From the IMG/VR virus record IMGVR_UViG_3300029922_000031, positions 41,075 to 105,074 of that record: 64,000 bases of DNA. One strand, given 5' to 3'. Shown piece after piece: positions 10,597 through 64,000 of this stretch. A program made the translations under genes and the position numbers. The DNA is from a virus. The number at the start of each line of letters is the position of its first letter. Position 1 is the stretch's first letter. Under the pieces are notes generated by a model, which saw only the letters and a list, made by a program, of their open reading frames with translations, was not told the origin of the DNA and made no database searches.

Positions 10597-10666
10597 AAGG
10601 TGTCGCCGCCTCGCTGCTTCGTCAGTCATTATTGACTATAGCGACTACGAAGCGGGACGCTCGCGG

Positions 10667-13576: not shown

Positions 13577-13630
13577 CCGTAACTCTCTGTTTCGTGTGAT
13601 GAATTTATAGCAGACGCAAAGCGGCTTACG

Positions 13631-61056: not shown

Positions 61057-61362
61057 TCAAATGCCAGAGCCGGGAGGCACGATGCCGAGAGCGGGAATCT
61101 CTTCCCAGACGGCGACTGAAGTGCCGGCGGTCGAGATCGCCGTAAAGGCGTCCTGCGAATCTTCGCGCGGCAGAAAGTCTTCCTTCGCCCCGGCAGCGTA
61201 GTTGTCGCCGACGTTTGCGACCGCAGCCGCAAGGCCCGGCGCAACGGTGAAGGGATTGGCGCCGACATTCATCCAGCGCAGACCGGTGCGGTTGGGATTG
61301 GCGGCGACGAGCAACGTGGACGTCGCGGCCGCCAGAGTGACAATAGTTTGCTTCCAGCTCAT
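61057..61362 (-). CDS. Small beta-rich hypothetical protein
   Basis: STLLVAANPNR.GL...N.G pattern seen in phage accessory proteins; GAGG RBS before ATG 61362. Confidence 0.6.
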   Translation of the reverse strand: MSWKQTIVTLAAATSTLLVAANPNRTGLRWMNVGANPFTVAPGLAAAVANVGDNYAAGAKEDFLPREDSQDAFTAISTAGTSVAVWEEIPALGIVPPGSGI

Positions 61363-61401
61363 CGGGCGGTCCTCAAGAAGATCAGTCAATACTAACTGAT
61401 T

Positions 61402-61884
61402 TCAGCGGACAGGGCTAGAACTTTCCTTCCAGATCGCGCGGATCGCCGCTGCAACCGCCGGATAGGAGCGCGGATGCAGATGATCGCGCCCCGGAACGTA
61501 GGAGACTGTCTGAATGTGACGCGCGGCCGCGACACTGGCGATATGCGCCCGCGCCGAGTTGACGCCCGGCGGCAGAATCAGAACGAACTGGCCGGCGTCG
61601 ATGTGATTGATGATCGCCTCGAGACATGGACCGGGCGCGTCGTTGACGCCGGCGGAGATTGCGAAATGATCGAAATGACCGACCGCCAAGGGGACCTCGT
61701 GCTTGAGGATCCAGCACGACGACATGCGCTCGCGCGCGAAGGTCGCGACGTGGAGCGCATGACCCGTACCGAACGCGATCGAATCGCCGGCGGCGCCGTC
61801 TCGAGCAAACGCCGTCGCGACGCTTATCGTCACATAGAGAACGACGAGAAACGTCAGCTTGGCGCGCTTAGCGAACTTGGACAT
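61402..61884 (-). CDS. Secreted SGNH/GDSL-like esterase
   Basis: Signal peptide, GDSIA (block I), SAGVND (block III), DHLHP (block V). Confidence 0.75.
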   Translation of the reverse strand: MSKFAKRAKLTFLVVLYVTISVATAFARDGAAGDSIAFGTGHALHVATFARERMSSCWILKHEVPLAVGHFDHFAISAGVNDAPGPCLEAIINHIDAGQFVLILPPGVNSARAHIASVAAARHIQTVSYVPGRDHLHPRSYPAVAAAIRAIWKESSSPVR

Positions 61885-62380
61885 AGGCCACCACTTGCCG
61901 GGGACTGACTTCGCCATCGGCGACGCGATGACCCCAATTGCCGGAAGTAAGGAGAATGTTGCCGTCGGGCGCGCGGCCGCCGTAGAAGCCGACGTGATGC
62001 GGCATGACCACCAGGTCCCCCTGCTTAGGATTGCCTGTGTGTGGGCCATAGCTCAGCGCCGAGCTCGCCATGCCGTTCTTCAGCGGCTTGTGGCCGGTGC
62101 GCTCGAGGACGAACGACACGAACCAGGCGCACCAGGCGCCGGCCTTGCCGGTGGGGTTGTTGGCGCCGATCCAGCGCTTAGCCTCGCCCAGCGGGCCGCT
62201 GACGAAACCGAATGAAGTAACCGGGCCGTTCTGATAGGCGCTCAGCTCACTACAGCCGGTTCGACCGCAGGCCGCGGCCGGCTTCGAGCCAAGTTCGACG
62301 ATGAGCAAGGCTACGAAAAGCCAGAGAAGGACGCCGATGAGAAGTCGTATCTTCAGGTGGGCGCGCAAATACTTGAACAA
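61868..62380 (-). CDS. CHAP/NlpC-like (TIGR02594-type) peptidoglycan hydrolase with N-terminal TM/signal
   Basis: AWCAWFV...L, A.S...YG, GDLVV..HHVGFY, SGN. Confidence 0.8.
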   Translation of the reverse strand: MFKYLRAHLKIRLLIGVLLWLFVALLIVELGSKPAAACGRTGCSELSAYQNGPVTSFGFVSGPLGEAKRWIGANNPTGKAGAWCAWFVSFVLERTGHKPLKNGMASSALSYGPHTGNPKQGDLVVMPHHVGFYGGRAPDGNILLTSGNWGHRVADGEVSPRQVVAYVQVR

Positions 62381-62464
62381 ATTCAGCTCCGGTGTCGCGG
62401 TTGAGCCACGACCTTACCGAAAGCGGTCAAATAAGTCAATTTTGACTGTCACAATGGGCGGGAA

Positions 62465-62717
62465 TGTCTCTCGTGAGCGCGAGCCCTACTTCGCGACGCG
62501 CCGGCACTAGTCCAGGGAATCGGGTTCGTTCACCATTCGACGAGGACTGAGATCGCACACTCCCTGCGGTCGAGCTCGTTAGCCAGAGCTCACATCGCAG
62601 GTTGCGGAGTAATTGATCTCAAAGCCTTGTTAAGGCCCAGACCCGCTTCGTATGACAAAGTACCGTCGCCCGGCGGGTCTGATCTATCTCGAAGGCTGGA
62701 AGCTCTCACGAGAGACA
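62465..62717 (-). ncRNA. Candidate 253-nt structured non-coding RNA
   Basis: 13-bp perfect terminal stem (62465-62477 with 62705-62717), several internal stems, and an extended -10 TGcTATAAC placing +1 at about 62717. Confidence 0.65.
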
Positions 62718-62735
62718 ATTCACGTTATAGCAGCT

Positions 62736-62984
62736 TCAGCGCGGGCGTTTGTCGTAAAACACGTCGATGCAGAAGGCGCCGGAGGGTCGATAGACCCACA
62801 GTCGCCAGCCGCGGTAGACGCCGTAGCTCTCCGTTGACGGATTGAGGTTCGTCACCTTCAGCGAAACCAGCTTCCACCACGGCCAAACGCTCGGACCGTG
62901 CTCGGGCTGAATGAGGAGTTTGGCTTTGAACGAGATGTTGGTCGAGAAGACCATCAGCCGGCGCAGCTTGAACGAGATTCTCAC
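62736..62984 (-). CDS. Small hypothetical protein (paralog of 52009-52254)
   Basis: GTG start overlaps the upstream TGA; LNP..E.....G.RLW.Y motif. Confidence 0.55.
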   Translation of the reverse strand: MRISFKLRRLMVFSTNISFKAKLLIQPEHGPSVWPWWKLVSLKVTNLNPSTESYGVYRGWRLWVYRPSGAFCIDVFYDKRPR

Positions 62985-63151
62985 GAGACCACCTTCAGGT
63001 CGACGACCTTCGGGTTCGGGAATGTGCCAACATCCACCAGGGCCTTCGACCACTCACTCAGAGACCAGGCTCCGACGATCTTGTCGTCGACCAGCGCCCG
63101 GACGATCGAGCCGTCTTCGCTTTTCTGAATCGACAGCTTGCACTCGATCAC
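62981..63151 (-). CDS. Small hypothetical protein (56 aa)
   Basis: GGAGG RBS + GTG; MIECKLSIQKSEDGSIVRALVDDKIVGAWSLSEWSKALVDV...; below the track cutoff. Confidence 0.55.
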   Translation of the reverse strand: MIECKLSIQKSEDGSIVRALVDDKIVGAWSLSEWSKALVDVGTFPNPKVVDLKVVS

Positions 63152-63236
63152 AGGCAGCCTCCCTCTCCGAATTTCACCCCCTGTCCCGCAGGACAGGGGC
63201 CGTGGCTTTCAGGCCACGCGGCCCGTTCGGGCAAAT

Positions 63237-63313
63237 TGGTTGCGCGAGAGGGATTTGAACCCTCGACCTCCAGGGTATGAACCTGGCGAGCTCCCGGACT
63301 GCTTCACCGCGCT
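63237..63313 (-). tRNA. tRNA-Met(CAT), initiator (fMet)-like, CCA encoded
   Basis: 77-nt cloverleaf AGCGCGG...CCAGG-TTCATAC-CCTGG...GAGGG-TTCAAAT-CCCTC-TCGCGCA-ACCA; 1:72 mismatch; promoter TTGCCA-N17-TATTCC upstream. Confidence 0.93.
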
Positions 63314-63816
63314 GGGATGAGGAATACCTCAGTTCGATCGACTTGGCAAGTCAGTTTTGACTGTCGGGACGCGCTGGCCCTGCCCGCCGGGTTGTCTCCC
63401 AACTGAGTGGCAAGGATGCGGTGACAAGGATCTGTAGGTATTCCTGTAGTTTTGGGGCCGAAGTGACAAGGATAGGTTTTGGGTTGGCGAGCAATGGCGG
63501 CATAGCTCCCGAACTGTGGCATTTATATCTAAGACTTGTGTTCTTCCAGCCACAGTGAGTCTAATACGCCACACTGTACGAGAACACAATTCAAACACAA
63601 TCTAAACACAATTGACGCAACGTGTGACTATACCGCCATAGTGAGTCAATTGAGCCATAGTGTGTCCAACCGACCTCACTGTTGCATGAAAGACATGCGG
63701 AATCTTTGTGCAGTGCCATGCAAACTATTTTCGACGCCGCGCTTGCGTTTCGACGCGCAATCGCTACATTCAATCTTGCGACTGATTGAGTCGCGACACG
63801 CAAGAGAGTAATTCAA

Positions 63817-64000
63817 ATGTCTCACAAGCAATTCTCACTGTCTGACTACGCGAACGCAGAGCGCGACGACGCAGAGCGCGACAATGATCTTTTCGACGTT
63901 GCGATTGCGCTCTGCAATGCAAACGACGACGCAGAGCGCGACGACGCAGAGCGCGACGACGCAGAGCGCGACAATCAGTTGTTCGACAATGCGCGCTTGC
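63817..64000 (+). CDS. Acidic AERDD-repeat protein, 3'-truncated
   Basis: ATG 63817 after AAGAGAG; MSHKQFSLSDYANAERDDAERDNDLFDVAIALCNANDDAERDDAERDDAERDNQLFDNARL; upstream CTTGCG-N16-CTACAT promoter-like sequence. Confidence 0.6.
   Translation, partial: MSHKQFSLSDYANAERDDAERDNDLFDVAIALCNANDDAERDDAERDDAERDNQLFDNARL

Follow-up and report, generated by a model that had tools for sequence, protein, structure and literature searches.

A candidate structured non-coding RNA gene in a small lineage of peat phages

Structured RNAs of the GOLLD and ROOL sort belong to the least understood parts of phage biology, and most of the candidates have been put forward from comparative sequence analysis alone. 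The pRNA of phage phi29 measures 120-174 nt, is made from its own promoter near the genome end, and combines a closing helix with a multi-way junction and a 3′ domain which the RNA can do without and loses. GOLLD and ROOL themselves are large and ornate RNAs, which are often found in prophages and beside tRNA genes (PMC5737381). The element examined here resembles the latter two in being phage-borne, tRNA-adjacent, non-coding and built of several stems, and its function is likewise an orphan one; it differs from them in its length of about 250 nt as compared with about 580-800 nt, it is unrelated to them in sequence, and there is no evidence of multimers.

The element lies in the virus record IMGVR_UViG_3300029922_000031 (105,074 bases, estimated to be 93% complete), the final 64 kb of which were analysed; this whole stretch of 64,000 nt is called the window below, and coordinates refer to it unless another contig is named. 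A first-pass annotation, made from the letters of the window alone, had read the element as a new ncRNA gene that gives a closed 253-nt RNA and perhaps works with an Hfq-like phage protein. The generic marks of an ncRNA gene were all found in the present analysis, namely compensatory changes, an own promoter, the lack of coding conservation and exact contigs in RNA libraries, and we consider it very probable that the element is a real, expressed and structured ncRNA gene. The first-pass reading thus stands as far as a structured RNA with its own promoter and outside the known families is concerned, while a phage Hfq as partner is not supported and the stable RNA may be shorter than the closed form of 253 nt.

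Arms and fold of the element

The predicted primary transcript, designated ncRNA W, covers 253 nt of the minus strand (62465-62717), as judged from its fold and from a homolog that scores 247 bits with the joint model. The 5′ arm of the closing helix P1 (TGTCTCTCGTGAG, 62705-62717) and its 3′ arm (CTCACGAGAGACA, 62465-62477), both read on the minus strand, are exact complements of each other, and the perfect 13-bp closing arms spanning 253 nt that had been described from the sequence are indeed present. We calculate that chance should give about 0.4 perfect 13-bp inverted repeats with arms within 400 nt per 64 kb, and four inverted repeats of at least 13 nt with separated arms were observed in the window, P1 included. 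The 13-bp closing helix by itself is therefore near the chance level and not beyond it, and the case for an RNA gene has to rest on other evidence.

The minimum-energy fold of the element was obtained at -111.7 kcal/mol (z = -4.2), and none of 200 shuffled sequences was as stable; judged by energy, the opposite (plus) strand folds equally well (z = -5.2). Each of the stems listed in the first-pass annotation reappeared in this fold: CAGACCCGC/GCGGGUCUG, GGCCUU/AAGGCU, an AGUCC/GGACU arm, a GCGCG-type arm and, within a long rod, the stems GAGAUC/GAUCUC, UACUCC/GGAGUG, CUGCG/CGCAG and UGAGCUC/GAGCUCG. The element folds into a multi-branch junction from which P2 and P3 emerge as hairpins of their own, and its internal loops are small, measuring 3x3 and 3x2 besides a 5-nt bulge.

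Within the arms of P1, the first hairpin on the minus strand is P2 (62638-62681), which has 44 nt and is a hairpin in both of the phages compared below. It is followed by P2b (62623-62637), a small hairpin formed by GGCCUU/AAGGCU, which is weakly supported since the homolog keeps just 4 bp of it. P3 (62548-62621) is a rod of four stacked helices with double changes in the homolog, and its apical loop of 8 nt (UGGCUAAC, 62578-62585) is represented there by CUGGUAA. The 3′ domain (62513-62547) holds the conserved strings GUCCUC and GAACCCGA together with a small hairpin, and it includes the candidate 3′ end at 62513; the remaining 3′ trailer (62478-62512) forms a G+C-rich hairpin, which is absent from the homolog. 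A competing arrangement was also noticed around the junction. P1b (nt 22-29 paired with nt 178-186 of the element) and P2 are rivalled by an alternative pairing, in which nt 18-24 join nt 76-83 in the 3′ strand of P2. This alternative is also conserved, and either arrangement can form in both phages. These two conserved and mutually exclusive pairings may constitute a conformational switch.

A homolog in a related phage and its compensatory changes

A related phage contig (G001) was reached through the portal protein, in which it is 74% identical to the window phage, and its CHAP gene is 63% identical; the portal search of IMG/VR gave three contigs, two of which are fragments without the RNA region. 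G001 begins inside sequence resembling the 3′ end of the element. With a pattern built from the window copy and the G001 copy, a second contig from the same metagenome was obtained, IMGVR_UViG_3300028800_000148 (L090/G003), which overlaps G001 and carries the complete homolog of about 229 nt on its minus strand (L090:88-316). The homolog directly follows a tRNA-Met and its hairpin, and the two small ORFs found between tRNA-Met and the RNA gene in the window are absent from the relative. Over 215 aligned columns, identity between the two copies is 65.6%, and the alignment contains indels of 1, 8, 7 and 27 nt.

Some observations on the contigs themselves may be added. The two IMG contigs of the relative, G001 and G003, share about 125 nt, an overlap that starts within its RNA gene. 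Together with the Logan DNA contigs of run X6, of which one ends at 62532 and one starts at 62511, this makes two independent assemblies with a break in or near the element; the cause could be low cover, strain variation or something structural. The JGI contig Ga0302281_10034089 (L009) is identical to window 61339-64000 and continues for 89 nt beyond the end of the record (L009:1-89); the record end is therefore not the physical genome end. The copy of the element in L009 is identical to that of the window and so adds no sequence variation. The CHAP gene of the relative (P0002) is also encoded on an ENA contig of 113,945 nt.

The comparison of helices, which was drawn from two distinct sequences only (the window phage and the relative), took in P1, the junction helix P1b, the base of P2 and P3a-d. 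Among the 45 pairs compared, 32 are unchanged and 11 are altered on both sides and still paired, with one further pair changed on one side (U-A to U-G) and one broken. The alignment register of P1 and P3a-c is secured by conserved flanks, and of the 27 pairs there six have changed; all six are double changes that keep pairing, with none one-sided; examples are U-A to C-G in P1, A-U to G-C in P3b and C-G to U-A in P3c. P1, which has 13 bp in the window phage and 10-12 bp in the homolog, keeps 10 of its 13 pairs, one of them by way of the U-A to C-G change. In the rod P3, 10 of the 23 aligned pairs are altered on both sides yet paired and none is broken, one entire base pair of P3a has been deleted from both strands, and the distal stem has been replaced in sequence and still pairs, with its apical loop motif and the 3x3 internal loop AAU/UGC kept. 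P2 is 44 nt long in both phages and folds at -21.7 and -21.8 kcal/mol, respectively, with a conserved base (CAGA/UCUG) and a different interior. RNAalifold, run on a plain MAFFT alignment, gave 10 compensatory pairs among 62. The helices contain two G-U pairs in the window phage and five in the relative, and these favour the minus strand as the one that is transcribed, because they would be A-C mismatches on the other strand.

Taken together, these changes argue that a fold made of P1, P2 and P3, with the conserved 3x3 internal loop and apical loop of the latter, is under selection. The first-pass annotation had named covariation among homologs as a way to recognise the RNA, and the one conserved homolog that was found does carry compensatory changes.

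The relative also shows some features of its own. Its P3 apical loop, CUGGUAA, has 7 nt and the form of an anticodon loop (Y-U-NNN-R-A), which is perhaps a coincidence. Upstream of its tRNA-Met (L090, minus strand, about 720-545) there is a further candidate structured RNA, in which a box GCTATAAT is followed after 7 nt by GATCCCTG and about 150 nt on by CAGGGATC, giving an 8-bp closing helix; neither a counterpart in the genome of the window phage nor an Rfam match was found for it. Downstream of the RNA gene and ahead of the CHAP gene, the relative has a structured stretch of about 140 nt (L008:121-260, z = -3.9), which is flanked by two operator/promoter copies; it also had no counterpart in the window's genome and no Rfam match.

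Promoter, surroundings and RNA-library contigs

The TGcTATAAC box that had been reported ahead of the element is present as an extended -10 (TGCTATAAC, 62732-62724), situated 6 nt before the 5′ arm of P1. It belongs to a longer motif, CCGC[GT]-N8-GCTATA (62726-62744, minus strand), which was found three times in the window against 0.04 expected (10637-10655, 13606-13624 and 62726-62744, all minus). Genome-wide the motif occurs eight times in the record (all minus) and nine times in the relative, every copy pointing in gene direction, and one of the nine copies in the relative precedes the RNA homolog, 6-7 nt from P1 as in the window phage. The -10 part reads GCTATAAC in the window phage and GCTATATC in the relative, and its distance to P1 is conserved. 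As the -10 ends 6-7 nt before P1 in both phages, transcription should start at the 5′ arm. The own promoter attributed to the element by the first-pass annotation could thus be traced to a phage-specific motif class, which holds the same position in the relative.

The -10 part fits GCTANAWC, the -10 consensus of alphaproteobacterial housekeeping promoters. A -35 element would be replaced by the box at about -27 to -23, as it is by the MotA box in T4 middle promoters, and the motif as a whole looks like an activator-dependent middle-promoter class; it was also found ahead of the hfq-like/helicase/primase operon. The likeness to T4 middle promoters concerns the promoter only and not the RNA: by analogy, a host-type -10, a box in place of the -35 and the use for replication genes are common to both, whereas the box here is CCGCT/G and not the MotA box. 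When the region 62300-63450 was scanned for consensus sigma-70 promoters none was found, and a terminator scan of the same region gave no relevant terminator, an intrinsic terminator after the element being absent as well.

The long ORFs of the window lie nearly all on the minus strand. Read 5′ to 3′ on this strand, the locus consists of an operator-type promoter, tRNA-Met, a hairpin, a 56-aa ORF, an 82-aa ORF, the element, an operator palindrome and the CHAP gene. The tRNA-Met (63237-63313, minus) was identified by ARAGORN and by the Rfam tRNA model; it lies about 520 nt upstream of the element, in agreement with the tRNA reported near it, and is upstream of the RNA gene in both phages. Directly after it, a hairpin CCCCTGTCC-TGCG-GGACAGGGG (63177-63198, minus) is identical in the related phage and has no T-run; it may be a terminator or a processing signal without a U-tract. 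The two small ORFs that follow are without family support; the second has a GTG start at 62984 (minus) and was read as 82 aa, or 105 aa in the ORF listing. Upstream of the tRNA promoter, ATCCTTG(T/C)CAC is present three times (63407-63473, minus), and in the relative the sequence recurs at the matching place in L090 and after the RNA gene (L008:68-78); by their sequence these copies are putative iteron-like or regulator-binding repeats.

On the other side of the element, the operator copy said to stand just past its 3′ end is an exact palindrome (AGTCAAAATTGACTT, 62433-62447, minus), which holds a TTGACT -35-like hexamer for the CHAP peptidase unit. With up to two mismatches allowed, the palindrome AGTCAAAAYTGACTT has 20 copies in the window against 0.12 expected, and it also precedes the CHAP gene in the related phage. 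The gene that follows the palindrome downstream of the element encodes a CHAP/TIGR02594 peptidase of 170 aa on the minus strand. An RtcB RNA ligase gene is common to both phages (G000:C1:8807-9880 minus; G003:C1:16657-17739 minus); we treat it as shared context with no demonstrated link to the RNA.

All sequencing runs that contain the locus are, without exception, peat metagenomes. A RepC-like protein of the phage shares 41-46% identity with RepC proteins from plasmids of Microvirga, Methylobacterium and Bosea, which makes a member of the Hyphomicrobiales the probable host, in line with the alphaproteobacterial host assumed earlier. The RNA gene belongs to a small lineage of peat phages of about 100 kb, which are probably phage-plasmids with hosts among the Hyphomicrobiales.

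The element was also looked for in RNA libraries. In four peat metatranscriptome runs, 7-18% of the words from the surrounding 1,451 nt were present, and the contigs of three such runs, from three studies, were compared with the window over 61700-63700. Contigs of 100% identity from all three studies cover 62513-62699 (minus), namely X17 (62514-62664), X18 (62513-62699) and X20 (62513-62646), so that the presence of the element in RNA libraries is borne out by exact contigs in three metatranscriptomes. The sole other RNA contig of this region belongs to the CHAP gene (X17, 62048-62221). Assembled contigs cannot prove transcription, strand or ends, and expression is in this way indicated and not proven. 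The RNA contigs leave 62465-62512, 62700-62717 and most of the flanks uncovered, which is not evidence of absence, and the depths of the X17 contigs (21.8 for the element and 8.3 for the CHAP piece) are unusable for ranking expression.

The contigs of all three studies end at 62513/4, 48 nt before the 3′ arm of P1. The X20 contig is a fragment with sequencing adapters on both sides, the read-1 adapter standing at 62513 and reading the plus strand, and contigs X17 and X18 have no loose end. Provided that the library is dUTP-stranded (its strandedness is not documented), an adapter standing this way round would point to an RNA of the minus strand whose 3′ end is at 62513. The position lies in a locally conserved string, ACCCGA-NNN-CCU-N|GA, of both phages. 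An X6 DNA contig crosses 62513 (61700-62532) and another X6 contig starts at 62511; because DNA contigs also break at 62511-62532, the common stop gives only a weak hint of an RNA 3′ end at 62513. With regard to the closed RNA of 253 nt proposed at the outset, the arms and the helix are present, but the stable form may be shorter, as the contigs stop 48 nt early.

Known families, rival explanations and related systems

The whole window was searched with Rfam 15, and only the tRNA was returned at the gathering score. At E<=10, the region 62200-63000 gave only a chance Prion_pknot hit outside the element, and the homolog region of the relative gave the tRNA only. The statement that the element falls outside the known RNA families was upheld at both thresholds; there was no Rfam match to 6S, tmRNA, RNase P, SRP, Y RNA, pRNA, C4, GOLLD, ROOL, HEARO, self-cleaving ribozymes or riboswitches. 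Similarly, no match was found when the element was compared by blastn (word size 11) with 50,697 phage records and 72,556 plasmid records. Pattern scans of IMG/VR with the terminal repeats, the core GGGTCTGGGCC-N10-TTTGAG, the 3′ motif, and the promoter together with P1 returned only the relative, and no IMG/VR relatives of the CHAP peptidase or of the 82-aa ORF were found. In 80 JGI metagenome loci with CHAP homologs, which were searched by blastn, nhmmer and a covariance model, the element was present in L009 only; with the filters off, the covariance model gave hits of at most 16 bits in the seven closest loci, and the two inspected are Ala-rich coding DNA. The core pattern was further run against GTDB (185,579 species, one genome each), where it gave 10 hits, about the chance number, with none confirmed by nhmmer or the covariance model.

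As regards coding capacity, the best six-frame protein alignments between the two copies score 55-60, contain stops and are alike in several frames; no ORF with conservation or family support was found on the element, consistent with the absence of a convincing ORF noted earlier.

Several described RNA types were weighed individually. 6S RNA was rejected on its fold, for a single rod with a large central bubble would be expected in place of the multi-branch junction with small internal loops. The retron and Y-RNA readings both fail their defining test, because neither a reverse transcriptase nor a Ro/TROVE gene is present. For the former, closing repeats of the a1/a2 type, which are not specific to retrons, were found, and the reverse transcriptase model PF00078 had no match in the 105-kb record; for the latter, TROVE/Ro (PF05731) had no match in G000 at E<=1, where control genomes respond, and ARAGORN and the Rfam tRNA model found tRNA-Met and no tRNA-like module. 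A phi29-type pRNA was set aside for want of an Rfam match and of a loop pair that is complementary in both copies, as judged by eye. The Hfq-like protein suggested as a partner lacks support, since the Pfam Hfq model (PF17209) finds nothing in the three phage records (G000, G001 and G003) at E<=1.

Our preferred reading, which we hold to be somewhat the likelier one, is that of a stand-alone structured ncRNA gene of peat phages, which is driven by a replication-class promoter, trimmed at its 3′ end and active in trans by binding protein. The alternative that the element is a cis-acting leader of the CHAP-peptidase or late operon, i.e. an attenuator, a riboswitch or a put-like antiterminator acting on polymerase from the class-2 promoter, appears unlikely to us. 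It could account for the conserved, mutually exclusive pairings, the element is oriented like the downstream operon with no intrinsic terminator before the next gene, and attenuation could produce a 3′ end inside the element. However, in both phages an operator-controlled promoter separates the RNA from the CHAP gene, the relative has about 250 nt more with two promoter-like sites in between, no riboswitch or leader family was matched, and the RNA of the relative directly follows the tRNA and its hairpin as a unit of its own.

An equally unlikely explanation is a base-pairing regulatory RNA, that is, an immunity or antisense RNA which, like P4 CI or P1 c4, is cut out of a longer precursor and would pair with phage or host mRNAs. 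Complementarity to the genome does not exceed 13 nt and no antisense target is common to the two phages, the element is almost fully paired, unlike seed-bearing sRNAs, the Rfam C4 model gave no match and a Pfam Hfq was not detectable; on its side are the promoter within an operator-rich regulatory region, the processed look of the 3′ end and the conservation of single-stranded stretches. An Hfq-dependent sRNA was rejected in particular, there being no Pfam match to a phage-encoded Hfq, no terminator-like site and no target complementarity above 13 nt; a host Hfq may yet be involved.

We think it quite improbable that the element is an origin or primer transcript, whose RNA-DNA hybrid would be cut to a primer 3′ end at 62513 as in ColE1 RNA II or T4 ori(uvsY). 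The promoter class is shared with the helicase-primase operon, there is the hint of a discrete 3′ end, and the locus lies about 1.3 kb from the record end and adjoins the iteron-like repeats; nevertheless, the DNA after 62513 is G+C-rich and structured and not an unwinding element, the GC skew increases monotonically and does not switch at the locus, a repC-type replicon is already present in the genome, and the covariation of a long rod whose loops are conserved speaks for recognition of the RNA rather than for a hybrid. Finally, a MITE, fold-back element or other DNA-level site whose terminal repeats resemble an RNA helix by chance can be dismissed as highly improbable: although perfect 13-bp terminal inverted repeats bound 253 nt and two independent assemblies break in or near them, the element is single-copy in the record and absent from the phage and plasmid records, it has no dispersed copies (the core hits among 185,579 species genomes being at chance level and unconfirmed), its flanks (GTGAAT before and ATTCCC after, minus strand) contain no direct repeat or target-site duplication, and two phages only about 66% identical across it share its position and promoter and differ by compensatory changes in internal local hairpins.

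Under the preferred reading of a trans-acting RNA gene, the primary transcript (about 253 nt here and about 229 nt in the relative) would close on itself through P1 and then be trimmed from the 3′ side back to about nt 205 (window 62513). The stable RNA would be made together with the replication-phase genes and would work in trans by binding protein or as a scaffold or decoy, with the conserved P3 loops and the conserved junction strands as its contact surfaces. Protein binding is favoured over base-pairing because conserved loops are carried on variable stems and the RNA is almost fully paired; as a mechanism, scaffold or decoy action in trans is a tentative proposal, to which we would give somewhat less than even weight. 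A link of the RNA to the RNA-repair and tRNA functions of both phages (tRNA-Met and RtcB) is one possibility, and the anticodon-like loop CUGGUAA of the relative fits, though it in no way shows, a decoy for RNA-targeting defence.

The class so far has two members, and no described family fits it. We lean slightly towards regarding the two as the founding pair of a new phage RNA class, with a replication-phase promoter, a 3′ trailer that is removed, two exclusive pairings and an action on a host or phage protein. Three supports are combined here, a fold with compensatory changes, a phage-specific promoter class of the replication phase, and exact matches in environmental RNA libraries with a hint of the 3′ end. 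If upheld, the element would offer a small and tractable RNA (about 190-250 nt) for studying what such RNAs do during infection, and it would serve as a marker for a poorly sampled lineage of peat phage-plasmids, for which there is no cultured host.

Compared with other described systems, the element recalls retron msr-msd RNA in the inverted repeats at its ends, which close a structured transcript of about 200 nt; it differs in that no reverse transcriptase is present in the record and that the rod, the equivalent of msd, is present in RNA libraries. With the bacterial Y RNAs YrlA and YrlB, which go with Ro/Rsr and often RtcB, it has in common a closing stem made by the ends, a comparable size (about 100-200 nt in those RNAs) and the presence of RtcB in both phages, whereas its genome is without TROVE/Ro, a tRNA-like module and an Rfam match. 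From phi29 pRNA it is set apart by the lack of a match to the Rfam pRNA model and of a complementary loop pair as judged by eye; in layout, the features of pRNA given at the beginning, from the own promoter near the genome end and the closing helix to the multi-way junction and the 3′ domain that is lost, resemble those of the element.
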